From an uncultured Acidobacterium sp. (lineage in GTDB: Bacteria > Acidobacteriota > Vicinamibacteria > Vicinamibacterales > UBA2999), in NCBI GenBank assembly GCA_964495855.1, contig CAZBYY010000002.1:1-36662 (forward strand): a DNA stretch of 36,662 nt. The letters run 5' to 3'. This document shows, one piece after another, positions 1-13,476 of the stretch. How positions within the stretch are numbered: the stretch's first letter is position 1; each line of letters opens with the position of its first letter. The notes beneath the pieces were generated by a model. It was not told the origin of the DNA and searched no databases. It was given only the letters and a program-made list of their open reading frames with translations. The translations under genes and the position numbers were made by a program.

Positions 1-417
1 GTCCGCCATGCGCTTCACGCGAGTGGCCGTATGCTGCGTCGGCGTGCACTGGTAGTGGAGGTAGCCATCCGGCACCGCCCTGGCGTCGCGCGGCAGCGCA
101 CGCTCGAGCCGAAAGGTCTGCGCCGGCACGGCGAAGGGCGTGCCGAGCCGCTCGCACGTGGCGATCGCCCCCTGCAACACGGCAAAGTGCGGCGCGACGG
201 TGGTGGCCATGTAGACCTCGTCTACCGGCGTTGCCTGCAGGAAGGCAGGGAGCGCAGCGATGTCGCCGAGATACGGGATGCTCAATTCCTGGCGAAGGTG
301 TTCATCAGGAAGCGAGAAGGCGCCGAGCACGCGGTGACGGCGGGCCAGGTCCTTCGCGGTCTCACGTGCGAGCGGGCCGCAGCCCACGATCACGACGTCA
401 GGTGTGCGTGTAAACAT
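1..417 (-). CDS. EPS-type polyprenyl-phosphate sugar-phosphate transferase, N-terminal 139 codons only (gene continues past the left edge)
   Basis: Absent from the ORF track because it is truncated. Minus-strand translation from ATG at 417-415 (GGAG at 427-424) reads MFTRTPDVVIVGCGPLARETAKDLARRHRVLGAFSLPDEHL...IPYLGDIAALPAFLQATPVDEVYMA...TRVKRMAD. This is the Rossmann/CoA-binding-like module that precedes the bacterial sugar-transferase domain in EPS initiating enzymes. The frame is open to base 1 and starts 12 nt after the stop of the WecB/TagA gene. Confidence 0.6.
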   Translation of the reverse strand, partial: MFTRTPDVVIVGCGPLARETAKDLARRHRVLGAFSLPDEHLRQELSIPYLGDIAALPAFLQATPVDEVYMATTVAPHFAVLQGAIATCERLGTPFAVPAQTFRLERALPRDARAVPDGYLHYQCTPTQHTATRVKRMAD

Positions 418-429
418 CGAAGTCTCCAG

Positions 430-1197
430 TCAATTCGCGGCCGCAGCCGCGCCGCGCCTCCAGGCGCGAAGAAAGATCGGCACGATCTGCGGGTCGCGCA
501 CCAGGTAGCGATGCGCCAGCCGTCGCGGCTCTCGCCAGAGGCGATACGACCATTCGAGTCCCGCGTCCGACATCCATGCCGGCGCGCGCTTCACGTGCCC
601 GGCGGCGAAGTCGAGCGCGGCACCAAGGCCAATGCACACGGCCGGGGCGACGGCGTCGCGATAGCGGGCCATCCACCATTCCTGCCGGGGACATCCGAGC
701 GCGAGGATGACCAGTTGCGCTCCTGATTCGCGGATCGCGCGCACCGTCGCCGACTGGCTCGGTAACGCCGTGTCGTCTGGCGACCACCACGAGGTATCGC
801 GGCCGACGATGCGGAGGCCGGGGTGAGCGGCGGTGAGGCGCGCGGCCGCGTCGCGCGACGCAGCCTCCGACGCGCCGAAGAAGAACACGCCCCACTCGCG
901 GTCGGCGGCCCGCTGCATCAGCGGACCGAGCAGGTCGGAACCGCTGACGCGCGCCGGCAGCGGCGAGCCGAGCAGCCGTGACATCCACAGCAGCGGCTGG
1001 CCATCGGCGAGCGAGAGCGTGGCCTCGTTGTAGATGCGACGCAGCTTCTCGTCGCGCGACGCGAGGACGATGTGATCGACATTCGGCGTGACGATGTAGC
1101 CGCCGCGTCGTGCGTCGATCGCGGATTCGATCGCGCGCAACGCACCGTCGCGATCGAGCGGGTCGATCCCAAGTGGACCGATCTGGATTCGTGTCAT
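430..1197 (-). CDS. WecB/TagA/CpsF-family glycosyltransferase (GT26)
   Basis: The 255-aa ORF reads MTRIQIGPLGIDPLDRDGALRAIESAI...GGYIVTPNVDHIVLA...LADGQPLLW...VFFFGASEAA...LALGCPRQEWW...IGLGAALDFAAG..KRAP.WM...GLEW.YRL..EP.RL..RY. These are the typical WecG/TagA family blocks. Confidence 0.85.
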   Translation of the reverse strand: MTRIQIGPLGIDPLDRDGALRAIESAIDARRGGYIVTPNVDHIVLASRDEKLRRIYNEATLSLADGQPLLWMSRLLGSPLPARVSGSDLLGPLMQRAADREWGVFFFGASEAASRDAAARLTAAHPGLRIVGRDTSWWSPDDTALPSQSATVRAIRESGAQLVILALGCPRQEWWMARYRDAVAPAVCIGLGAALDFAAGHVKRAPAWMSDAGLEWSYRLWREPRRLAHRYLVRDPQIVPIFLRAWRRGAAAAAN

Positions 1198-1260
1198 GCC
1201 CCCGCCTACAGCAATTCGGTTGCCATCGCGATTTCGCTCGAAATGCGAAAAACAGGCCTG

Positions 1261-1314
1261 AATTCGTCTCGAATTGAGCCAGCCAGGCTCGTCTCAAAAC
1301 GAGACCGCAGAGAC
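1261..1314. promoter_or_regulatory. Cluster of inverted/direct repeats (candidate enhancer-binding-protein UAS or operator) in the divergent EPS intergenic region
   Basis: There is a perfect palindrome aattcg-tct-cgaatt at 1261-1275. TCGTCTC is repeated at 1264-1270 and 1289-1295. GTCTC(1291-1295)-aaaac-GAGAC(1301-1305) forms an inverted repeat, and a further GAGAC lies at 1310-1314. The cluster lies about 45-110 bp upstream of the -24/-12 element at 1358-1373. Confidence 0.3.
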
Positions 1315-1357
1315 GGCGCGCGAGCGCATTTCCCCCTGAAACCGGGCGGAACAGATG

Positions 1358-1373
1358 CGGCATGGAAGATGCA
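1358..1373 (+). promoter_or_regulatory. Candidate sigma-54 (-24/-12) promoter for the plus-strand EPS operon
   Basis: CGGCATGgaagATGCA against consensus TGGCACG-N4-TTGCA. The invariant GG (1359-1360) and GC (1371-1372) have the exact spacing, and C4, A5, G7, T13 and A16 also match. It is intergenic, correctly oriented, and 15 nt upstream of the first plus-strand start (1388). Confidence 0.45.
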
Positions 1374-1387
1374 CGACGAGGCCGCGA

Positions 1388-1564
1388 ATGCAGCAACTGA
1401 TCTTGAACTCGGTGTTGATTGCCGCCTTCGCGATTCCCGCGATGGTGTTGCGTGACAGCGGCGATGACGGCAACGCCGACTACGCGCGCGTCCTGCGCCG
1501 CGTCGTGATCTTCGCCGGCGTGTACGTGCCGCTGTTGCTGTTCGTTTATCCCAGGTTGTTTTAG
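1388..1564 (+). CDS. Hypothetical 58-aa two-helix membrane micro-protein
   Basis: MQQLILNSVLIAAFAIPAMVLRDSGDDGNADYARVLRRVVIFAGVYVPLLLFVYPRLF has two hydrophobic helices joined by an acidic loop. It ends 9 nt before the receiver gene. I recognise no family. The start is chosen at the internal ATG of track ORF 1355..1564. Confidence 0.35.
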   Translation: MQQLILNSVLIAAFAIPAMVLRDSGDDGNADYARVLRRVVIFAGVYVPLLLFVYPRLF

Positions 1565-1573
1565 GAGAGCCCC

Positions 1574-1978
1574 GTGACGAGTCCGATGAATCGACGTATC
1601 GCGCTGGTGGTGGACGACTCGCCCGACATGCGCATGCAGATGTCGGCGATCTGCCGCCGCGAAGGTCTCGACGTCGTGGAAGTGCGCGATGGTGAGACGG
1701 CGTTGACGGAAGCGCGTGAGCGCCGCCCCGACATCATTTGCCTCGACCTGATGTTGCCGACGCTGTCGGGATTCGAAGTGTGCGAGCGGCTGAAAGGCCA
1801 GCCGGAAACGGCCGACATCCCGGTGTTGATCGCGTCGGCCCGGTCGTATCCGCAGGATCGCGCCGAGGCCGAAATGGCCGGTGCCGATGCCTACGCGATG
1901 AAGCCGCTGGACGTGGATGCGTTTGCCACGCAGGTGCGCACGCTCCTGTGGCAGCGCAGGAAGGACGCGCGCGCGTGA
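1574..1978 (+). CDS. Single-domain response regulator (CheY-like receiver)
   Basis: The receiver signature is complete: ALVVDDSPD, phospho-acceptor context IICLDLMLP, VLIASA and AYAMKPLD. AGGAG lies at 1563-1567, upstream of GTG 1574. An alternative ATG start is at 1586. Confidence 0.9.
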   Translation: MTSPMNRRIALVVDDSPDMRMQMSAICRREGLDVVEVRDGETALTEARERRPDIICLDLMLPTLSGFEVCERLKGQPETADIPVLIASARSYPQDRAEAEMAGADAYAMKPLDVDAFATQVRTLLWQRRKDARA

Positions 1979-3471
1979 GCAGCGGCGCGGATTCGTTGAT
2001 GTCGTTCGGGACCCTGGCGCAGTGGCAGGCGGCCGGCCGGCTGATCGCCGGCGGCATTCGCCGATGGCGGGCGCGCATCGTGCTGGTCACGCTGGTATTC
2101 AGCGTCACCGGCGCGATCGCGGCCGCCGTCTTGCCGCGCACCTACTCGGCTGAAGCGCGCCTGCTGGTCCGCAAGAACTACGTCATGCCCGCGCTCGCCT
2201 CGCCGCGCCGCGCCGTGCCGATCAATTCCGAAATGCCGCTGCAGTCGGCAGGCGTGATGATCCTGAGCCGGCCGTCGCTCGAATCGATCATTCGCGAGCG
2301 TCATCTCCTCGAGCGATGGGAGCGCGATCGCGCACCGATGCTGCGGGCGAAGGATCGCATCACCGAGTGGATCAAGGGTCCGGTGTCCGAAGACGACAAG
2401 ATCGACGCGCTCGTCGACCTGCTCGAAACGCGCATCCGGGTCGGCGTCGAGGATGAGGTGTTGAAGATCAGCGCCAAGTGGTCCGATCGCGACACCGTCG
2501 TCGAGATCGTGGACGGCGCGATCGATTCGTTCCTGGCGGCGCGGCGGAAGATCGACGTGCAGACGGTGGCGGACACGAATGCGATCCTGAGCGAGTTCGC
2601 CGGTCGAGCGCGCCAGCAGGTTGACGAGCAGCTGGCCGCAGTCGCGCGACGGACGGTGCGGCCTGTGCGCGTGGCCGTCGAACCCGCGCGGTCCACGACC
2701 GCATCCGCGATCGTCGCCAGTTCACCGTCCCAGCTGCGCCGCGCCATCGATGCCGCGCGAGTGCGCGTCGAGGCGCTCGAAAAGCAGCACGCCGACGCAC
2801 GCGCGGCGCTCGAAGCGCGCATCGCCGAACGGCGGAGTGTGATCACAGAAAGGCACCCGGAGATGCTGGCCCTGCGCCGCAACCTTGCGCAGCTTGCGGA
2901 CGATCCCGCCGCGCTGATCGACGCGCGCCGGGAGCTCAGTGACCTGCTCGCCGCTGACGAGACGACCGCGCCTGTGCCGTCATCACCAGCTGTGCAAGAT
3001 CAGTCTCCGCGTAAGAGGATGGTCTTGAGCTCGAATACCCAGCGAATCGAGCAGCGCCGCGACGAGGCCTACGCCAAGCTCGCCGCCGGCGCCACCGACG
3101 AGGTCACCGAACGGCTCGCCGTCGCAGACCTGCTCGAGCCGCCCGCGCCGAATGAGGATGCGGTCGAGGCCGACCGGGCGATCCTGAAATCGTCGATCGA
3201 GTCCTACCAGGACCTGCGCACGCGGCTCGACAACGTGCAGATCGAGCTGCAGACCGCCGAAGCCGCGTTCAGCCACAAGTATTCGACGACGGTGCCGCCG
3301 CAGCGGCCGCGCAAGGCCACCAGTCCAAATGTGCCGCTCGTGATCGGGGGCGCCGCCCTGGCGGGTCTCCTCGCAGGCATCGCGCTCGCGATCAGCGCCG
3401 AGCTGAAGGCGCGGTCGTTGTGGTCGCTGCCGGCGCTGCGCCAGTTCATCGCCGCGGAAGGGCGCGCGTGA
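1975..3471 (+). CDS. Polysaccharide co-polymerase / chain-length determinant (Wzz/GumC-like, no kinase domain)
   Basis: GTG 1975 overlaps the receiver stop (GTGA); an alternative ATG is at 1999. The N-terminal TM is IVLVTLVFSVTGAIAAAV, followed by LPRTYSAEARLLV. A long Ala/Arg/Glu-rich coiled-coil periplasmic region precedes the C-terminal TM VIGGAALAGLLAGIALAISA. The first 79 codons of track ORF 1738..3471 overlap the receiver gene and are rejected. Confidence 0.7.
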   Translation: MSSGADSLMSFGTLAQWQAAGRLIAGGIRRWRARIVLVTLVFSVTGAIAAAVLPRTYSAEARLLVRKNYVMPALASPRRAVPINSEMPLQSAGVMILSRPSLESIIRERHLLERWERDRAPMLRAKDRITEWIKGPVSEDDKIDALVDLLETRIRVGVEDEVLKISAKWSDRDTVVEIVDGAIDSFLAARRKIDVQTVADTNAILSEFAGRARQQVDEQLAAVARRTVRPVRVAVEPARSTTASAIVASSPSQLRRAIDAARVRVEALEKQHADARAALEARIAERRSVITERHPEMLALRRNLAQLADDPAALIDARRELSDLLAADETTAPVPSSPAVQDQSPRKRMVLSSNTQRIEQRRDEAYAKLAAGATDEVTERLAVADLLEPPAPNEDAVEADRAILKSSIESYQDLRTRLDNVQIELQTAEAAFSHKYSTTVPPQRPRKATSPNVPLVIGGAALAGLLAGIALAISAELKARSLWSLPALRQFIAAEGRA

Positions 3472-4946
3472 TGCGCACCGCCGATCGCATCGCGCCGGCG
3501 CTCGCGCTGGTCGCTCCAGCGACCGCGGCGTCGTGGGTGCTTGCGGCCGTCGGCGGCGGCGTGGCCGCCGCCGTGCCGACGATCGCTGTGGCCGCGCTGG
3601 CATTGGTGTTCGCGATGCCGATGCAATGGACGGCGCTGTCGATGCTGGGCGCCGCGTTGCTCGTCGACAATCCGGGCGAACGTCCCTCGGATGGCCGGTG
3701 GCAGTCGCCGCTCTTCGGTCCCGGCGAGTTCATTTACGAGAATCTGCACAAGCACACCGGCATCGACGCGCTGCGCTTTTCCGCCATCGAACTCGTGTTC
3801 GCGGTGTTGATCCTGATCGTGGTGGTGCGCAAGCTCCGGCGCGATCCGCTCGACGATCCGCGCGGCCTCGGCGCCTTGCCGAACCCGATGAAGCACGCGT
3901 TTGCCGGCTTCTTTGCCGTGATCGTCGGCCTCGAGATCTACGGTCTCGCGCGCGGCGGCGATTTCAAGAATTCACTCTGGCAGCTGCGCCAGATGTTCTG
4001 GCTGCCGGTGCTCGGCGTGTTGTTCGGCCACGCGATCAAGAGCCAGGCGGCGCGCCGGACGTTGCTGCGGCTGCTGCTCGCGGTCGCATTCGTGCGCTGT
4101 CTCTTCGGCGTCTACTTTTACGCTGCGATCGCGCGTCCCCAACAGATGGACATCGAGTACGCGATGACCCACTCCGACTCGATCCTCATCGTCGTCGCGG
4201 TGTTGATCGCCGTGACGATGCTCGTGGAGCGGCCGACGTGGCCGCACCTGGCGCTCAACGCGATCGTGCAGCCGGTGTATGCGGCCGGGTTGATCGTCAA
4301 CGACCGCCGCGTCGCCTACATCACGCTGGCCGCCGGCGTGCTGTCGCTGATCCTGCTCGGCCCCGCGCACCTCCGCGTGTGGACCCGCCGCGCGCTGCTC
4401 GTCGCGATTCCGCTGGGTCTGCTCTATTTGGCCGCCGGCTGGAACTCCAACGCCGCCATCTTCAAGCCGGTGCAGACGGTCCGCTCGCTGTCGTCGCGCG
4501 ACGATGCGTCGAGCCAGACGCGCGACATCGAGAACTACAACCTCACGCTGACGCTGAAGCGCAATCCCGTGTTCGGATCGGGCTTCGGCCACGAGTACGT
4601 CGAGTTCGTGCAGGCCAACCGCGTCGACCAGATCTTCGCGCAGTACCGCTACATCGCGCACAACGGCGTGTTGTGGGTGCTGTCGATTGCCGGGTGGTTG
4701 CCGTTCTCGCTGCTGTGGGCACTGTTTCCGACCGCCGTGCTGATGGCGCGGCGGGCCTACGACAGCAGCCGCGCGGCGATCGATCGCACGACGGCGTTTG
4801 CGGCGTTCGCCGCGGTGTTGTGTTTCGTCGTCCAGGCGTGGGCGGACATGGGCCTGCAAAGCTGGATGGGAACGCTGGTGTTGACGAGTCTGACGGGAGC
4901 GGCAGGGGCGCTGTGGACGGCGCGCGATGCCGAGGCGAGGGCGTGA
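3471..4946 (+). CDS. O-antigen ligase / Wzy-type polymerase family membrane protein
   Basis: ATG 3471 overlaps the upstream stop (TGATG). It is a multi-spanning membrane protein with a large loop and a Wzy_C-like block: NPVFGSGFGHEYVEFV...YRYIAHNGVLWVLSIAGWL. Confidence 0.7.
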   Translation: MRTADRIAPALALVAPATAASWVLAAVGGGVAAAVPTIAVAALALVFAMPMQWTALSMLGAALLVDNPGERPSDGRWQSPLFGPGEFIYENLHKHTGIDALRFSAIELVFAVLILIVVVRKLRRDPLDDPRGLGALPNPMKHAFAGFFAVIVGLEIYGLARGGDFKNSLWQLRQMFWLPVLGVLFGHAIKSQAARRTLLRLLLAVAFVRCLFGVYFYAAIARPQQMDIEYAMTHSDSILIVVAVLIAVTMLVERPTWPHLALNAIVQPVYAAGLIVNDRRVAYITLAAGVLSLILLGPAHLRVWTRRALLVAIPLGLLYLAAGWNSNAAIFKPVQTVRSLSSRDDASSQTRDIENYNLTLTLKRNPVFGSGFGHEYVEFVQANRVDQIFAQYRYIAHNGVLWVLSIAGWLPFSLLWALFPTAVLMARRAYDSSRAAIDRTTAFAAFAAVLCFVVQAWADMGLQSWMGTLVLTSLTGAAGALWTARDAEARA

Positions 4947-6130
4947 GCGTGGTGTCGATGGTGTTGGTAATGCTCGGAGTGGCGCCGCTGGCGATGGCCG
5001 CCTATTTGTTCATGTTGACGATGGCCTGGAAGCGGCCGCAGCCGATGCCGCGCCGCCACGAGGCGCGCCGCATCGTCGTCGTCGTGCCGGCGCACAACGA
5101 AGAGCTCGGTATCGCGGCGACTGTCCGCAGCCTGTTGGCGACTGATTACCCGCGCGATCGTCGACGCGTCGTGGTCGTGGCCGACAACTGCACCGACACG
5201 ACCGCGCTCGTGTCGCTTGCCGCCGGCGCCGAGGTGATCGTCAGGAATGATGCGGATCGGCGCGGCAAGGGATTCGCGCTGGCATTCGCGTTCGATCGAC
5301 TGCGCGAGCGCAACGACTGGGATGCGGTGGTGGTCGTCGACGCCGACAGCGACGTCACGCCGAACCTGCTCTGGTCATTCTCGGACCGGATCGCGATGGG
5401 GGAGCAAGCCGTTCAGGCGCTCTATCTTCCGCGTTGTGGAGAGGCCGCGGTCAGCGTGATCACCGACATTGCGTTTGCAGCGATCCACCTGGTGAGATCG
5501 GCGGCTCGCGAGCGGTTCGGCCTGTCGTGCGGGTTGCGCGGCAACGGCATGGCGTTTACGCGCGAGGTGCTCGCGCGCGTGCCGCACGAAGCGTTCTCGC
5601 GCACCGAGGATCTCGAGTTCGGGATCCAGCTGGGACTCTCCGGTATCCGCGTGGCGTTTGTGGGTGACGCCGTCGTGCGCGGCGACATGCCCGAAGCGTC
5701 GACCGCGGTCACGCAACAGCGCGAACGATGGATCGGCGGCCGGATTGAAATGGCGCGCCGTCACGCGGGCGGATTGATCCGTGAAGCGATGGGCCGCCGC
5801 AGCTGGATGCTCGCCGATCTCGCCGCCGACCTGATGGTGCCGCCCCTGTCGATCCTGGCTGCGATGCTCACGGCGGGAACGGCGATCGCTGCCGTCGTCG
5901 CCGCCAACGGTGATGGGGTTGCACCACTTGGAATCTGGGCCGCTGCGTTCGCGGCGCTGTTCGTGCACGTCGCTCACGCGGCGCGGCTGTCGGGCGCATC
6001 GCTGAGCCGGCTGCATCGCGCGGCGATCGCGCTGCCGGAATACGTGGCGCGCAAGTGCGCCATCGCAAGCCGCGCGCTGGTCACCGACGACCAGCGCTGG
6101 GTGCGCACGCCGCGCAAGGGAGAACTGTGA
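4943..6130 (+). CDS. Membrane-embedded family-2 glycosyltransferase, synthase-like (QxxRW type)
   Basis: GTG 4943 overlaps the upstream stop (GTGA). An N-terminal TM is followed by [49 protein letters not shown] and QRERW, with C-terminal TM helices. The upstream 470 codons of track ORF 3533..6130 are an off-frame shadow of the Wzy gene. Confidence 0.85.
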
Positions 6131-6684
6131 TGAAGAGCGGTCTGTGGGAAGACGCGCTGCACCTCGCCGCCGCGGCGCGCCTGGCGCGCACGCCGCGCAA
6201 CGCGTGGCGGATGATCCGCACCGACGCGTACTGGCTGCTGTTGCTGTTCCGGATGCGCAGCATCGTGCTGGCGTGGCGGATTCCGATCGTCAATCGCGTG
6301 CTGCGCATGATGCAGATGGTGTTTGGCGGCGTCGAGCTCGGCAACGACATCACGCTTGGCCGCGGCGTCTACTTCATTCATTCGCTCGGCACGGTGGTCG
6401 GCGGCACGGCGCGCATCGGTGATCGCGTGCGTTTCCTCGGGTGCAACACCGTGGGCACCGCGAGCGACAACGGCTACCCCGTGATCGAAGACGACGTGGA
6501 GATCGGCTGCGGCGCTCGCGTGCTCGGTCCCGTCCGTGTGGGCGCAGGCGCGGTGATCGGCGCCAACGCCGTGGTGTTGTCCGACGTGCCGGCCGGTGCC
6601 GTGGTCGTCGGCGCGCCGGCGCGCGTCGTGAAAATGCGTGCGACGCAACCGTCGCATTTGACCTTGTTGGAGAGTTCCCGATGA
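6130..6684 (+). CDS. Hexapeptide-repeat O-acetyltransferase (serine acetyltransferase/CysE-like, EPS-modifying type)
   Basis: ATG 6130 overlaps the upstream stop (TGATG). The left-handed beta-helix repeats are evident: [36 protein letters not shown]...[50 protein letters not shown]. Confidence 0.8.
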
Positions 6685-8276
6685 ATCCGATGGTGAGTGT
6701 GGTGATCGCGGCCCGCGGCCGCAGTGCGTCGGCCGCCAGGCTGCTGCGGCAGTTGTCGCAGCAGACGATTGGCGCCGATCGATTCGAAGTCGTGGTCGTC
6801 GACGATGGCTCGCCGGAACCGCTGGCGCCGCAGCTTGCGGTTCTCGACACGCCGTTTCCGCTGCGATGCGTGCGCATCGAGTGGAGCGGGCCGGCGGCGG
6901 CGCGTCATCATGGTGCCAGGCTGGCCACCGGCGATGTGCTCGTCTTCATCGACGACGACATGCAAGTGGCGCCGGAATTCCTGGCGGCGCACGTGCGGCA
7001 CCACGAGGAGCACCCGCGCACCGTCGTGCTCGGCCGCATCGATCCGGACGCGTCGATCGAAGAGATGCCACTGTTCGAGCGGTACCACGCGCGCCAGCTG
7101 GCGCGGTGGCAGGATGCGGTGGCCCGCGGGGCGCTGCGGCCGCGCGGCATGCATCTTTGCACCGGCAATGTCTCGATGCGCCGCCGCGATTACTTCGAGG
7201 TCGGCGGATTCAATTCGGCGCTGCAGCGCTCCGAGGACCGTGAGCTCGGCATCCGTCTCGAGGATGCTGGATGCCTGATCGTGTACGGTGCGGATGCGGT
7301 GTCGGTCCATTCGTCGGATCACACCGATCTCGAGAGATGGTTGTCGCGCGCCGACCTGTACGGCCGCATCGACCGCCGGATTGCGGACATGCATCCCGAT
7401 GCGGGTGCGCATCCGCTGAACTTCTGGCCGCTCATCCATCCGCTGTCGCGGCCGATCGTGGCACTGGTGCTCGTTGCTCCGGCGCTCGGCGGCGTGTTGT
7501 CGCGCGCGGCATTCCGGCTGGCGGCCGCGCTCGATCGCCTTGGCGCGGGATCGGCGGCGGTCACGAGCGCCGCGCTCGCGTACGCGCTGCAGTACTTCGC
7601 CGGCTATCGCGCGGCGTGCGGCAGCATCGCGCAGGTGCGCCGCGAGTGGCGCGCCGCGCGCGCGAATGGGGAGCGTGGCGCGTTGCATCGTTGCCTCGCC
7701 GCGATCCGTGCCGATCACAACATGATGCGGCACCACCGCCTGAAGTACCACGGTGACGTGATCCGTTCGGCGCGATTGCCGATCGATCTGGTCTCGAGGG
7801 TCGGGCTGCAGATGCTTGCGGTGTACCGCGTGATGCGGCTGTTTGCCGAGTGGCGCGTGCCGCTCGTGCCGCTCGTGCTGTCGCGGCTGATCCGGCATCT
7901 CTACGGCGCCGAGATCCATTGGAACGCGAAGATCGCGCCCGGCGTGTCGATCGTCCACGGCACGGGCCTCGTGCTCAGCCACGCTGCCGAGGTCGAACGC
8001 GGCTGCATCCTGTTCCAGAGCGTGACGCTCGGAGAAAGCATCGACGCCGAAACCGGCCGTATCGGCGCGCCGCGGCTGGCCGCCGGCGTGCACGTCGGCC
8101 CCGGCGCGACGCTCCTCGGACCGATCGAGATCGGCGCGTCGAGCAAGATCGCTGCTGGTGTGGTGTTGATGACGAGCGTGCCGCAGGGCACGCTGGTGAT
8201 GCCGCCGCAGCCGGTGATCAGCCGGAGGCGCGTGGGCGCGCCGCGCGCCGCGATGCGCGCCGCGTCAGCGGCCTGA
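6681..8276 (+). CDS. Fusion protein: N-terminal GT2 glycosyltransferase, hydrophobic linker, C-terminal CysE-like hexapeptide acetyltransferase
   Basis: ATG 6681 overlaps the upstream stop (ATGA). The GT2 blocks are [28 protein letters not shown] and EDRELGIRL. The hydrophobic segment is [15 protein letters not shown]. The acetyltransferase module is [31 protein letters not shown]...[40 protein letters not shown]. Confidence 0.8.
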
Positions 8277-9050
8277 CTCGTGCTTGCCGATCAGGTAGCC
8301 GCGCTCGACGCGCAAGGCGGCGAGAGTCGGCGCAAGCTGTTCGCGAATTGCGTCGAGGTGCGGACGCACGTTGATCGCCACACCGTCGCGCGCGGCATGT
8401 TCGATCGTGCGCGCGACGTCGGCGATCGCCACCGCGCCGAGCGTGGCCGCCCCCGCCTTCAAGGTGTGGGCCGCGCGCTCGACCTCGCCCGAAGCGCCGG
8501 CAGTGGTCATCGACTCGATGCGCGCGATCAGGTCCGGCGTGTTGGTTTCAAACAGGTCGATCAGCGATCCGATCAGATCCGTGCCTCGATCCGTCGACAA
8601 GCCGACCAGTTGGCGCATCGCGCGTTGATCGACACGGACGCCACCCTGGGCAGGAGCGCCAGGCGCCGCCGGACCAGGCGCGGGCTCGCGCGTCAACAGG
8701 CCGCGCATCGCCGATGCGAATTCGGCCGGATCAAACGGCTTGGTGTAAATGCCGGCGGCGCCGAGTTTCTGCAATCGCGCCACTTCATCAGGCATGGCTT
8801 TCGCGGTCAGGAACACGATCGGCGTCGTTGCCGTCTCCGGCCGCTGGCGCAAGGCCTCGAACACCGTCGGGCCGTCCATGTCCGGCATCATCACGTCGAG
8901 GACGATGGCGTCGAACGGCTGGGAGGCGGCGAGCCGTAGCGCCTCGCTGCCGTTGGCCGCTTCGACGACCTCGAAGCCCGCCAGCTGCCGCAGCGACAAT
9001 CGCGCCACCGTGCGCGCGTCGATTTCATCGTCTACAAGAAGTATCTTCAC
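8265..9050 (-). CDS. Response-regulator receiver fused to a histidine phosphotransfer (Hpt) domain
   Basis: From GTG 9050 (alternative GTG 9059) the product starts VKILLVDDEID. Receiver motifs are AIVLDVMMPDMDG, IVFLTAK and IYTKPFD. A Pro/Ala linker is followed by the Hpt motif RAAHTLKAGAATLGA. The N-terminal 125 codons of track ORF 8265..9425 overlap the H-NOX gene and are rejected. Confidence 0.85.
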   Translation of the reverse strand: MKILLVDDEIDARTVARLSLRQLAGFEVVEAANGSEALRLAASQPFDAIVLDVMMPDMDGPTVFEALRQRPETATTPIVFLTAKAMPDEVARLQKLGAAGIYTKPFDPAEFASAMRGLLTREPAPGPAAPGAPAQGGVRVDQRAMRQLVGLSTDRGTDLIGSLIDLFETNTPDLIARIESMTTAGASGEVERAAHTLKAGAATLGAVAIADVARTIEHAARDGVAINVRPHLDAIREQLAPTLAALRVERGYLIGKHESGR

Positions 9051-9086
9051 TGCCGTCACTCGGGTGTGAAAGGTAGGATAAGTCAG

Positions 9087-9644
9087 ATGTACGGTCTGGT
9101 AAACCGTGCCATCGAACAGATGGTGCGATCGGAACACGGCGACGAGACGTGGCAGCGCATCAAGGAGCGCGCCGGCGTGACGGTCGAAGTGTTCATCAGC
9201 ATGGACAGCTATCCCGATGCGACTTCGTACGCGCTGGTCGGCGCGGCCAGCGAGATCCTCGGGCAGCCCGCCGATGCCCTGCTGGAGGCGTTCGGCGAGT
9301 ACTGGACGCTCTACACAGCGGAGCAGGGATACGGGGACCTGTTTCGGAAGGGCGGCACGTCGTTTCCGAGCTTCATGCAGAACCTGCATTCGCTCCACAC
9401 GAACGTGGGCCACTTGTTTCCGCACCTGCAGCCGCCCTCGTTCTGGTGCACGGATGTGACCAGCACGTCGATGCGCTTACACTACCAGTCGACCCGACAC
9501 GGGTTTACCCCGATGGTCGTGGGTCTCGTGCGCGGCCTTGGCCGCATGTTCGACACCGACGTCACGATCACCGTCGAACGCACGCGCGAACACGGCGCGC
9601 CGCATGACGAATTCCTGATCGAGTATCGCGCGCGTACTGCCTGA
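9087..9644 (+). CDS. Stand-alone H-NOX (heme nitric oxide/oxygen binding) sensor protein
   Basis: MYGLVNRAIEQMVRSEHGDETWQRIKERAG is a canonical H-NOX N-terminus. The proximal His context is NLHSLHTNV (His104, nt 9396-9398). The heme-propionate motif Y-x-S-x-R is HYQSTR (Tyr133 at nt 9483). AGG-rich RBS aaaggtagga lies upstream. Confidence 0.9.
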   Translation: MYGLVNRAIEQMVRSEHGDETWQRIKERAGVTVEVFISMDSYPDATSYALVGAASEILGQPADALLEAFGEYWTLYTAEQGYGDLFRKGGTSFPSFMQNLHSLHTNVGHLFPHLQPPSFWCTDVTSTSMRLHYQSTRHGFTPMVVGLVRGLGRMFDTDVTITVERTREHGAPHDEFLIEYRARTA

Positions 9645-12085
9645 TGGCCGTCAGCCTCTCCTCCTCGTCGGTGAGCGATCTGTTCCCCTTCCACGTCGCG
9701 TGCGACGGGGAGCTGCGGATCGTCCAAGCCGGCAGGAACTGGCCGAGCGTCAGCCCGGCCGTCGCGGTTGGTGCACGCATGGACGAGTGCTTCGAGCTCG
9801 TGCGGCCGCACCTGCCGCTGGCGGTCGAGACCTTCCGCAAGCTGCGCGGCACGGCGATCACGCTCCGCTGCCGTTCGAACAACCTTCGGCTCAAGGGACA
9901 GATGATCGCCGCGGAGGGCAGCGGCCAGTGGCTGTTCGTCGGCAGTCCGGCGATCGGCAGCATCGACGACCTCGCGACGTTCGGACTCACGCTCGATCAG
10001 TGGCCGGCGCATGAATCGGCGCCTGATTTCCTGTTCGTGCTCCAGGCCAAGGACGCCGCACTCGCCGATGCGCGGGCGCTGTCGGAGCGGCTCGACTGGC
10101 AGCGGGCCGAGCTCGAGCGCGCGACGGCGGCGCTGTCGGACGCGATGGCCCAGCGCGAATCGGCGCGCAGCGCCGCCGCCAATCGCGAGGCCTGGATTCG
10201 GGCCGTGGTCGATTCCGCCCTCGATGCGGTGATCGCCATCGACAGGCATGGAGTGGTCACGCTGTGGAGCGCGCAGGCCGAAGCGATCTTCGGCTGGAGT
10301 TCGGCCGAGTCGATCGGCCGCCGGCTCGACGAATTGATCGTGCCGCCGCAATACCGAGAGGCGCATCGGATCGGGCTGGCGCGCTACCTGGACACGGGCG
10401 AGGCGCACGTGCTCAATCGCCGCATCGAGTTGCTCGCGCTGCGCAAGAGCGGCGAAGAATTTCCGGTCGAGCTCGCGATCGCGCCGATTGATGACCGCGG
10501 GCACCTCGGCTTCAGCGCGTTCGTCAGCGACATCACCACTCGCCGCAGCAGCGAGCAACTGCTCCACCTGCAGCGCACAGTACCGCAGATCCTGGCCGGG
10601 GCGGCCACGATACACGATGCGGCGCGGCCGCTCCTCGAGGTGGTGTGCCGCTCGATGGGATGGGACGCCGGCGCGCTCTGGCTTGAACCAACGCAGGGCG
10701 AGGCCGCGGAGTGCGTGGGCACGTGGACCGGCGACCGCCAGCTGGAGGCCTTTGCCGCCGCACTCCAATCGCAGGATGCAGACGCCGCCGTTGACGCCGT
10801 TCCGCTCGCCCTCGCTGTGCCGATTGTCACGTCGCACGGCCTGCCCGCATGGGGCGATCACGGTGGCGGCCGATCGATCGGCGCGATGCGCTTCTACTCG
10901 CGCCGCGCCGCGCCGGTCGCGACCGACGTGGTCGCCGCCCTCGCCGGTGTCGCGAGCCAGCTCGGCCAGTTCATCGAACGCAGCCGCGCCCAACAGGACA
11001 GCGCACAGGCCGCACAGCGTCTCCGCTCCGTCGTCGACAACATGCTCGAAGGGCTCGTGCTCGTCGATGATCAGTTGCGCATCGTCGAGGCCAACCCGGC
11101 GTTCGCGAAGATGTTTGGTTACGAGCCGTTCGACCTGGTCGGGCGCTCGATCATCGAGATGATGCCGGACCGTCCCGAGTACCGCGATCAGGAAAACCTG
11201 ACCATGATGTACCGGCAGTCGCTCGGGCGAGTGTCGGAACACGAGGGCCGGCGGCGCAACGGCGCGGAGTTCCCGATCCAGCTGCAGGTGTACGAAGTCA
11301 CCACCGCCGATGGCGTGTTGATCGCCGGTCACGTGCGCGACCTGTCGCAGGAACGGCAGGCCGATCGATTGAAGAAGCAGTTCGTCGCGTCGGTCAGTCA
11401 CGAACTGCGCACGCCGCTGACGGCGATTCGCGGCTCGCTTGGCCTGCTGGCGCTCGGCGCCCTTGGTCCGCTCGAAGATGAGGCGAGGGAAGTCGTGAAC
11501 ATGGCCGAGCGCAATACCACGCGCCTCGTCGGCATCATCAACGACCTGCTCGACATCGAGCGTTTGCAGGCCGGCATGTTCACGCTGAGCCGGGCGGCAT
11601 TTCCTATCGATCGTGCCATCACCCGCGCGCGTGAAGCGATCGCCGCCATTGCCAGCGAGCAGGACATCACCATTGTCGAACCGCAGAGCGGCATCGAGGC
11701 GTGGGGCGACGAGTCGCGTGTCGTGCAGGTGCTCGTCAACTTGATCGGCAATGCGATCAAGTTCTCGCCGCGCGGATCGAGCATCGAGATCCACGTGACG
11801 CAACGCAAATCGGAGATCCGCGTCCAGGTGCGCGACCACGGCCGGGGGATCCCCGAGGAAATGCTGGCCGTCGTGTTCGAGCCGTTCCGCCAGGTGGAAG
11901 CATCCGACGCTCGCACCAAGGGTGGATCCGGCGTCGGCCTGGCCATCTGCCGCGGCATCATCGAGCAGCACGGCGGCACGATCGGTGTCGACAGTCGTCT
12001 TGGCGACGGCGCGACGTTCTGGTTCACCCTGCCGTCGAAACCCATTTCCGCAGCCGCGGCGACAGCGCCGGCTGTAGTAGCCTGA
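9644..12085 (+). CDS. Sensor histidine kinase: HNOBA (H-NOX-associated) - coiled coil - PAS - GAF - PAS - HisKA - HATPase_c, no receiver
   Basis: ATG 9644 overlaps the H-NOX stop (TGATG). The N-terminus LFPFHVACDGELRIVQAG...LVRPH...LRLKGQMI...WLFVGSPAIGSIDDL..FGLTLDQWPAH closely parallels the H-NOXA/PAS-like domain of soluble guanylate cyclase. The H-box is SVSHELRTPLTAI, the N-box NLIGNAIKFSP, G1 DHGRGIP and G2 GGSGVGLAICRGI. Confidence 0.9.
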   Translation: MAVSLSSSSVSDLFPFHVACDGELRIVQAGRNWPSVSPAVAVGARMDECFELVRPHLPLAVETFRKLRGTAITLRCRSNNLRLKGQMIAAEGSGQWLFVGSPAIGSIDDLATFGLTLDQWPAHESAPDFLFVLQAKDAALADARALSERLDWQRAELERATAALSDAMAQRESARSAAANREAWIRAVVDSALDAVIAIDRHGVVTLWSAQAEAIFGWSSAESIGRRLDELIVPPQYREAHRIGLARYLDTGEAHVLNRRIELLALRKSGEEFPVELAIAPIDDRGHLGFSAFVSDITTRRSSEQLLHLQRTVPQILAGAATIHDAARPLLEVVCRSMGWDAGALWLEPTQGEAAECVGTWTGDRQLEAFAAALQSQDADAAVDAVPLALAVPIVTSHGLPAWGDHGGGRSIGAMRFYSRRAAPVATDVVAALAGVASQLGQFIERSRAQQDSAQAAQRLRSVVDNMLEGLVLVDDQLRIVEANPAFAKMFGYEPFDLVGRSIIEMMPDRPEYRDQENLTMMYRQSLGRVSEHEGRRRNGAEFPIQLQVYEVTTADGVLIAGHVRDLSQERQADRLKKQFVASVSHELRTPLTAIRGSLGLLALGALGPLEDEAREVVNMAERNTTRLVGIINDLLDIERLQAGMFTLSRAAFPIDRAITRAREAIAAIASEQDITIVEPQSGIEAWGDESRVVQVLVNLIGNAIKFSPRGSSIEIHVTQRKSEIRVQVRDHGRGIPEEMLAVVFEPFRQVEASDARTKGGSGVGLAICRGIIEQHGGTIGVDSRLGDGATFWFTLPSKPISAAAATAPAVVA

Positions 12086-12090
12086 GGCGC

Positions 12091-13469
<1,379 letters not shown>

Positions 13470-13476
<7 letters not shown>

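Follow-up and report, generated by a model that had tools for sequence, protein, structure and literature searches.

A predicted bidirectional sigma-54 control region with a shared enhancer and a linked NtrC-type activator at an exopolysaccharide locus of an uncultured acidobacterium

Gene content of the locus

The stretch of DNA analyzed here, referred to as the window, comprises 36,662 nucleotides from an uncultured Acidobacterium sp. of the order Vicinamibacterales (assembly GCA_964495855.1, contig CAZBYY010000002.1, positions 1 to 36,662 of the forward strand). Near its left end, an intergenic gap of 190 bp separates a minus-strand epsA-like gene from a plus-strand operon that opens with a small open reading frame (ORF) followed by an epsW-like gene. 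The features described below indicate that this gap is probably a bidirectional sigma-54 control region for exopolysaccharide (EPS) synthesis, in which two divergent promoters would share one enhancer and respond to an NtrC-type activator encoded at the same locus. The epsA-like gene (430..1197, minus strand), the first of the divergent operon, codes for a WecG/TagA/CpsF glycosyltransferase (PF03808; best NCBIfam match NF041872 EpsA), and is followed by a gene for an EpsZ-like priming transferase (1-417, minus strand; NF041877 EpsZ) that is cut by the contig end. With the contig beginning inside this gene, the remainder of the divergent operon falls outside the window; in relatives, genes for Wzx and an outer-membrane export protein are found in the missing part, at times along with that for the activator.

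On the other side of the gap, the small ORF (1388..1564, plus strand) is the first gene of the plus operon and encodes a 58-aa two-helix membrane peptide with the C-terminal motif VYPRLF, for which no Pfam or NCBIfam match was found. It is followed by a gene for a stand-alone receiver (1574..1978, plus strand; PF00072), whose best NCBIfam match is EpsW of Myxococcus xanthus (NF041866, 105 bits against a cut-off of 200). The EPS structural genes that come next (1975..8276, plus strand) have overlapping junctions in the gene calls, and were assigned by Pfam and NCBIfam to an EpsV-like chain-length protein (1975-3471), a Wzy-type polymerase (3468-4946), an EpsU-like GT2 glycosyltransferase (4913-6130), an EpsC-like acetyltransferase (6127-6684), and an EpsD-like GT2 fused to an EpsC-like domain (6681-8276), all on the plus strand. 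For nearly all of these genes, the best NCBIfam matches are the M. xanthus families EpsZ, EpsA, EpsW, EpsV, Wzy_EPS, EpsU, EpsC, and EpsD. The scores all fall under the equivalog cut-offs (EpsA 223/500, EpsV 169/800, Wzy_EPS 356/670, and EpsD 336/370 bits), and the proteins of the window are homologues of the M. xanthus Eps families rather than equivalogs.

A contiguous block of signaling genes (8265-13476) lies beyond the structural genes, and comprises those for a REC-Hpt protein (8265-9059, minus strand), an H-NOX protein (9087-9644, plus strand), an HNOBA-PAS-PAS histidine kinase (9644-12085, plus strand), and an NtrC-type response-regulator enhancer-binding protein with REC, GAFTGA-containing AAA+, and Fis-type HTH domains (12091..13476, plus strand; PF00072, PF00158, PF02954). 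The operon is an accessory locus, being absent from all 24 other genomes of the same genus that were compared. The genome surveyed along with the window is metagenome-assembled (4.0 Mb, 597 contigs, 65% G+C), and its genes were called with a simple codon-position model, according to which 91% of it is coding and about 9% non-coding.

Two predicted, divergent sigma-54 promoters in one intergenic gap

The original prediction, made from the sequence of the window, had singled out a sigma-54 match upstream of the plus-strand operon. This -24/-12 element, CGGCATGgaagATGCA (= CGGCATGGAAGATGCA; 1358..1373, plus strand), is located as claimed, with its GG (1359-1360) and GC (1371-1372) set apart by the exact spacing of 10 nt, and with exactly 15 nt between the C of the GC (1372) and the ATG at 1388. 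Transcription of the plus-strand operon is thus predicted to start near 1384, 4 nt before that ATG. The earlier account held for this site and missed a better one on the opposite strand, TGGCAACcgaaTTGCT (1225-1210, minus strand), a divergent -24/-12 element for the epsA-like and epsZ-like genes that lies 13 nt, counted from its -12 cytosine, before the ATG at 1197 and shares the same putative enhancer.

The scan of the window with a sigma-54 weight matrix against the genome background, as the original prediction had proposed, placed the minus element first (13.8 bits, against a matrix maximum of 21.8), the plus element second (12.9 bits), and the next match at 10.9 bits across both strands of the 36.6 kb. 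Both top matches of the window, then, fall inside a single 190-bp gap, and each faces outward to its flanking gene. Across the 8.0 million positions of the genome, 96 sites score at least as high as the plus element, equivalent to 0.88 per window, which agrees with the earlier estimate of about one chance match in a stretch of this size; in a 190-bp gap, taking both strands, about 0.0045 matches at this score are expected. High-scoring sites show a marked preference for intergenic DNA, from which it is evident that the matrix detects real promoters: 26 of the 37 genomic matches of at least 14 bits are intergenic, as are 30 of 79 in the 12-13 bit band of the plus element, as against the approximately 9% of the genome that is non-coding. 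The gene for sigma-54 itself, rpoN, the absence of which had been named as an argument against the prediction, is present on another contig (C519) as a 481-aa open frame with a Sigma54_DBD match (E = 8.5e-66). A sigma-70-like promoter was sought in 1100-1650 and none was found, and an Rfam search of 1100-1700 returned no credible match. A terminator-like hairpin at 1317-1304 was rejected, as it is part of the enhancer described below. Taking the sequence evidence as a whole, we regard the two sigma-54 promoters as very probably real.

A probable shared enhancer between the promoters

The element proposed as the core enhancer (UAS, upstream activating sequence) lies between the two promoters at 1291..1314 and reads GTCTC-aaaac-GAGAC-cgca-GAGAC, a 15-bp palindrome followed by a third half-site. 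The centre of the palindrome is 74 nt from the -12 cytosine of the plus element and 87 nt from that of the minus element. A distal GTCTC half-site (1266..1270), 25 bp upstream of the GTCTC of the palindrome, probably belongs to a second site for an activator dimer. The repeats that the original prediction had listed as the likely binding region of an enhancer-binding protein are all in place, namely AATTCGTCTCGAATT (1261-1275), TCGTCTC (1264-1270 and 1289-1295), GTCTC-N5-GAGAC (1291-1305), and a further GAGAC (1310-1314). The GTCTC/GAGAC part of this proposal was upheld by conservation in all 11 loci compared below. The AATTCG-TCT-CGAATT palindrome at 1261-1275 was discarded as a functional repeat, for it is genome-specific and conserved in no other locus, with only the embedded GTCTC being kept.

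The full enhancer motif is rare: the 4.0 Mb genome has two copies, both intergenic, where first-order Markov simulations gave 0.1 per genome. The second copy (contig C137, 1785-1808) is 84 nt from a sigma-54-like element, CGGTACGgatcGTGCC (about 1862-1877), which is itself followed after 15 nt by the ATG (1892) of a gene for a secreted 170-aa protein that has no Pfam match, and then by a large ORF (2438-6715) for a 1425-aa protein with many repeats. These genes are likely to be a second target of the activator, and their products are perhaps matrix or adhesin proteins. Within the window, no further copy of the enhancer was detected with up to three mismatches, and nothing thus points to the H-NOX operon of this genome being autoregulated.

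Conservation of the control region across orthologous loci

We compared 11 loci, drawn from seven genomes (this one and six of the same order) and four independent metagenome contigs (L044, L048, L049, L050) that were chosen for having enough upstream DNA. The EpsV-like marker protein is 35-60% identical across these loci (31-60% over the loci on which the footprinting drew), and 39-44% in the six other genomes. Most of the intergenic sequences from the other genomes were transcribed by hand. An alignment-based scan of 185,579 species genomes with one short conserved peptide pattern recovered only the six known genomes, and a single-protein scan of genome contigs for the EpsV-like protein yielded no matches, its patterns being too specific. 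The submitter labels of three related genomes (L040, L041, and L043, labeled Solibacteraceae once and Acidimicrobiia twice) clash with their placement in one order with genomes labeled Acidobacteriota, and these are probably mislabeled bins.

The same layout recurs in all 11 loci, with the epsA-like gene divergent from the small ORF, the receiver gene, and the EpsV-like gene. The small-ORF protein is conserved at the equivalent position throughout, with N-termini of the form MQ(K/Q)L... or (M)RPLLLL.... Each locus likewise has a plus-type element of canonical spacing before the small ORF, (C/T)GG(C/T)A(C/T)N-N4-NTGCN, a near-consensus minus-type element before epsA, TGGC(A/C)NN-N4-TTGCN, and, between the two, GT(C/T)TC-N5-GA(G/A)AC-N4-GAGAC, the third half-site of which is one base off in four loci. 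Nine of the 11 loci have an additional GTCTC upstream of the core, at a distance of 23-25 bp; in one metagenome contig (L050) it forms part of a full second palindrome, GTCTC-N5-GAGAC, 23 bp from the core, which is the classic two-dimer arrangement. The remaining intergenic DNA of the 11 loci is unalignable. In five genomes that have only distant EpsV homologues and no orthologue of the activator (G216, G339, G373, G234, and G402), the enhancer motif is absent at the corresponding loci. We conclude that the conserved GTCTC/GAGAC repeats are strongly supported, by comparative sequence evidence, as the putative enhancer of both promoters.

The distances between enhancer and promoters, taken between the midpoint of the 15-bp palindrome and the -12 cytosine, are 72, 74, 83, 83, 84, 85, 92, 93, 93, 94, 94, 94, and 95 nt for the plus-type elements and 85, 87, 87, 95, 96, 96, 97, 98, 107, 108, and 172 nt for the minus-type elements. 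They form clusters one helical turn apart, with a Rayleigh R at 10.5 bp of 0.85 (plus) and 0.81 (minus, p ~8e-5), the p-values being optimistic because three of the loci come from one genus. Such clustering shows that the predicted enhancer and each promoter keep a constant helical orientation to one another, as would be needed for an activator bound there to face the closed complex by DNA looping.

The population of the window occurs at freshwater and groundwater sites (studies P1 and P4). A closer comparison comes from a drinking-water metagenome (run X12), one contig of which represents a strain approximately 92% identical to the window. Its 12 differences in 1267-1387 all lie in 1315-1387, and none falls in the enhancer (1291-1314) or the 16-mer promoter element (1358-1373); were changes evenly spread, the chance of such avoidance would be about 0.005-0.008. 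The same strain has a 1-nt deletion at 1355, which alters the enhancer-promoter distance by one, and coding changes at 1414-1522.

Additional promoters of the same enhancer-plus-sigma-54 design are found in two of the related genomes. In G025, one lies before an EpsC-like acetyltransferase gene (L007 1538-1439, minus strand), and in G235 another follows a stop codon (L033 9496-9612), with 13 nt from its -12 cytosine to an ATG. A further candidate in G025, CGGCACcagaatATGCA (L007 about 7467-7451, minus strand), was rejected as the counterpart of the plus-type element, since its GG-GC spacing is 11 nt and its ATG is the start codon of the small ORF itself; it is a decoy, and the true site, TGGCATCggacGTGCA, is situated further upstream, 50 nt before that start codon.

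The linked NtrC-type protein as the candidate activator

The original prediction had pointed to the NtrC-type regulator 10 kb away, on the grounds that it is the only sigma-54 activator of the window. There is indeed a single such gene in the window (PF00158 match at 12514-13014), an argument that is weak by itself, with about 20 sigma-54 enhancer-binding proteins encoded genome-wide. The phyletic distribution of the regulator speaks for the same protein more directly. Among 401 genomes of the same order, its orthologues (64-70% identical, with the next-best paralogues at no more than 44%) are present in 7 of the 7 that carry the operon and in 0 of the 394 others. In six of the seven, the activator gene is on the contig of the operon, 6-13 kb away, in three different arrangements; in the seventh, G264, a contig end intervenes. 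The co-occurrence analysis was run for this one activator, and a second regulator may co-occur as well.

In three genomes, the activator gene itself would be under the divergent promoter. Domain searches in G189 revealed closely spaced same-strand genes for EpsA, EpsZ, Wzx, an outer-membrane export protein, a protein of unknown function, and the activator, all behind the divergent sigma-54 promoter, and the ORF layout of G136 and G264 matches that of G189. The activator gene thus appears to end the divergent epsA-like operon in these three genomes, and should the G189-type genes be a single operon, the activator would enhance its own expression. The seven orthologues share an invariant acceptor aspartate (D52), the G(A/S)FTGA motif, and the HTH motif GRATLYRK. 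With a TIGR01818 (NtrC) score of 434 bits, under the equivalog cut-off of 559, the activator is not NtrC itself. From this co-occurrence and linkage, we consider it likely that the 12091-13476 protein is the cognate activator of the two promoters.

Nitric oxide as a plausible signal and the apparent exchange of sensors

H-NOX proteins are encoded in four of the seven operon-bearing genomes (G000, G235, G264, and G189). Together with an HNOBA kinase, H-NOX is linked to the locus in G000, G235, and G264, and apparently in G189. In G000 and G235, the genes for H-NOX and an HNOBA kinase are directly upstream of the activator gene, and in G235 the signaling module beside the activator is the same as in the window. 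In G264, the eps genes are followed downstream by a gene for a GH44 glycosidase and then by the H-NOX gene (L035 2693-3259, minus strand). A separate contig of G189 (L037) carries genes for GH44, H-NOX, and an HNOBA-GAF-PAS hybrid kinase with a fused REC-Hpt module (1482-4977), a layout that suggests the same arrangement as in G264. The GH44 gene just upstream of that for H-NOX (L035 3281-5653, minus strand, in G264; L037 1-1452 in G189) has no counterpart in the operon of the window.

The other three genomes (G025, G199, and G136) lack H-NOX and keep the activator, the enhancer, and the promoters. In G199, the activator is paired with a GAF-PAS-GAF-PAS kinase (L030 11360-14344), the C-terminal half of which is 52% identical to the kinase of the window, and in G025 a divergent gene for a hemerythrin-domain protein (L031 2161-2958, minus strand) adjoins that of the activator. 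Given that these three genomes retain the unit in the absence of H-NOX, the sensor would be exchangeable, and the conserved unit would consist of the activator, the enhancer, and the promoters. The NO-dependent control of EPS synthesis envisaged in the original prediction is accordingly plausible for this genome, where the H-NOX and HNOBA proteins are linked to the activator, and does not extend to the system in general. On the basis of gene linkage, we lean towards NO being the signal in this genome, and consider it to be one interchangeable input rather than the defining signal of the system.

A proposed mechanism and its alternatives

Under the proposed mechanism, the phosphorylated 12091-13476 regulator would bind the GTCTC/GAGAC enhancer as dimers and assemble into an active ring, which would use ATP to open both sigma-54 closed complexes, so that the whole Wzx/Wzy-type exopolysaccharide pathway might be switched on together, with at least one distant promoter (on contig C137) responding as well. 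In this genome, the phosphoryl input would probably come from the adjacent relay of H-NOX, HNOBA-PAS kinase, and REC-Hpt protein, through which NO or another haem ligand could tune polysaccharide production; related genomes would couple the same activator, enhancer, and promoters to other sensor modules.

Several points weigh against this scheme. The sigma-54 matrix is an approximation of the published consensus, and the plus element has three non-consensus positions, -26 (C), -21 (T), and -15 (A), of which the C at -26 is normal here, many of the strong sites of the genome starting with CGGCA. A Shine-Dalgarno sequence would not fit into the predicted leader of about 4 nt, and translation would have to proceed in a leaderless-like manner. 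The loci compared are partly non-independent, G189, G264, and G136 being members of one genus. None of the RNA runs searched (RNA-seq or metatranscriptome) holds the locus, and both the start site and the dependence on sigma-54 are thus inferred. The pairing with this particular protein among the approximately 20 enhancer-binding proteins draws on co-occurrence and linkage, and the persistence of the unit in the three genomes without H-NOX bears on the role assigned to the relay.

Some of these points would be accommodated if the match at 1358-1373 had arisen by chance and the operon were transcribed from an unrecognized promoter of another type: a window would be expected to contain about 0.9 matches as good as this one, the element differs from the consensus at three positions, and it is only 15 nt from the ATG. 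We consider this most improbable in the face of a canonically spaced element at the same place in 11 of 11 loci whose intergenic DNA is otherwise unalignable, its phasing relative to a conserved enhancer, the presence of a twin divergent promoter, the lack of a sigma-70-like site in 1100-1650, and the recurrence of a 13-16 nt spacing to the start codon at other strong sites of the genome. The promoters and the enhancer could also be real and the GTCTC/GAGAC repeats read by another enhancer-binding or DNA-binding protein, with the linked activator controlling something else. The large complement of sigma-54 activator genes leaves room for this, as does the absence of an enhancer copy near the H-NOX operon of the window, and the HTH of the linked protein (GRATLYRK) is of a common family type whose sequence alone provides no tie to GTCTC. 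Such a reading is unlikely, as it is at odds with the perfect co-occurrence of activator and operon, with a linkage that survives three gene arrangements, and with the apparent position of the activator gene inside the divergent eps operon in three genomes. A reading with a fair claim, though less likely than not, accepts the activator as the driver of the EPS promoters and denies the relevance of NO: H-NOX might instead respond to O2 or to the redox state, or the main input might come from the PAS domains of the kinase or from other kinases, with the EpsW-like receiver and the REC-Hpt protein integrating several inputs. It is favored by the 3 of 7 genomes that do without H-NOX, by the other partners of the activator (the GAF-PAS-GAF-PAS kinase and the hemerythrin-domain protein), and by the two PAS domains that the kinase of the window possesses besides HNOBA. 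Against it stand the H-NOX and HNOBA kinase genes beside that of the activator in G000 and G235, the linkage of H-NOX to eps genes or GH44 in G264 and G189, and the precedent of Vibrio fischeri, in which NO and HnoX control the sigma-54 activator of a polysaccharide locus (PMC12369376). We consider a bidirectional sigma-54 control region with a shared enhancer and the linked NtrC-type activator the likely explanation.

Relation to known systems

A connection between sigma-54 and exopolysaccharide genes has been recognized for a long time (PMC3162934). The closest functional parallel is in V. fischeri, where NO-bound HnoX inhibits the kinase HahK and the signal passes via the Hpt domain of SypF (or via LuxU) to the sigma-54 activator SypG (PMC12369376). 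SypG in turn activates the syp polysaccharide operons via 'syp enhancer' sequences (PMC12369376; Ray et al. 2013, PMC3837961, cited therein). Shared with the locus described here are an H-NOX gene beside that of a histidine kinase, an Hpt relay step, an NtrC-type activator, and a polysaccharide locus, as well as the use of several promoters, each with a sigma-54 element and a common upstream enhancer motif. The differences are equally apparent: the organisms are Acidobacteriota rather than Gammaproteobacteria, the structural genes are like those of the Myxococcus eps locus rather than syp, and the enhancer motif is GTCTC-N5-GAGAC-N4-GAGAC, with one enhancer for two divergent promoters and very short leaders. 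Moreover, H-NOX and the activator are here encoded together beside the target locus, in a system known from sequence alone. By this analogy, the system would work like syp regulation without being a member of it.

In gene content, the nearest relatives are the eps genes of M. xanthus. The eps locus of M. xanthus encodes the NtrC-like regulator EpsI/Nla24, a c-di-GMP receptor (PMC4877007; PMC7484181), and neither an EpsI binding site nor eps sigma-54 promoters are defined in the literature on M. xanthus eps that we examined (PMC4877007; PMC7484181). The two loci resemble each other in their Eps-family gene content, in the NtrC-type activator tied to the locus, and in the stand-alone EpsW-like receiver; they differ in that the proteins of the window are all under the equivalog cut-offs. 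To our knowledge, H-NOX is not part of the Myxococcus eps locus.

A related relay operates in Vibrio harveyi and V. parahaemolyticus, in which NO-bound H-NOX controls the kinase HqsK, from which the signal passes to the Hpt protein LuxU and the sigma-54 activator LuxO, with an effect on biofilm (PMC3759921, PMC6759604). Unlike the activator proposed here, LuxO acts on small-RNA genes rather than directly on polysaccharide operons, and several quorum-sensing kinases converge on it. With respect to promoter architecture, the zraP/zraSR and hyc/hyp regions of Escherichia coli each have two sigma-54 promoters that diverge from a common intergenic region, with the sites for the activator in between. 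As in zraSR, the activator gene is apparently in one of the two divergent operons in G189, G136, and G264, whereas the regulators, signals, motifs, and target functions of the E. coli systems are unrelated.

In the literature searched, we found no paper that joins H-NOX, sigma-54, and EPS in Acidobacteriota, and no defined promoter, enhancer, or regulon for this phylum. The system is a new example of an already known kind of regulation rather than a new kind. Its interest lies in part with its hosts, the Acidobacteriota being abundant in soil and water and barely tractable genetically. The locus offers a complete testable unit, with a sensor relay, a dedicated candidate activator, a 24-bp enhancer motif, two predicted divergent sigma-54 promoters, and a matrix polysaccharide as the output, and the motif would allow a small regulon to be identified. 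The combination of one output stage (activator and enhancer) with varied sensors, namely H-NOX/HNOBA, a GAF-PAS kinase, and possibly a hemerythrin-domain protein, would amount to natural sensor swapping, and the parts are compact enough for reconstitution in E. coli.

Short leaders downstream of sigma-54 elements

With gaps from the -12 cytosine to the start codon of 15 nt (plus) and 13 nt (minus), transcripts from the two promoters of the window would begin 2-4 nt before their start codons (near 1384 and 1199, respectively), and would be essentially leaderless. By our own gene calls, on which all these counts depend, eight of the 11 loci have a gap of 13 nt before epsA, one has 14 nt, and two have 16 nt; before the small ORF, seven of the 11 have 13-17 nt and the others 48-53 nt. 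The conserved promoter-to-start gap of 13 nt raises the general question of leaderless translation from sigma-54 promoters. We tentatively suggest, as a possibility that falls somewhat short of an even chance, that this lineage routinely places the start codon 13-16 nt after the -12 cytosine, giving mRNAs that are leaderless or have leaders of 2-5 nt, devoid of a Shine-Dalgarno sequence. If this is true, the lineage would have a conserved design in which activator-dependent sigma-54 transcription is directly linked with the leaderless initiation of translation, and this design would sit beside a route from an H-NOX gas sensor through an enhancer-binding protein to the biofilm matrix genes of Acidobacteriota. 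We know of no description of leaderless translation coupled to sigma-54 transcription. Of the 73 strong intergenic sigma-54 sites found genome-wide, 10 lie 13-16 nt from a called start (exactly 13 nt in five cases) and lack a Shine-Dalgarno sequence; examples include C49:6852-6867 (plus strand), C101:393-408 (minus strand), C317:2116-2131 (minus strand), and C80:4741-4756 (plus strand).

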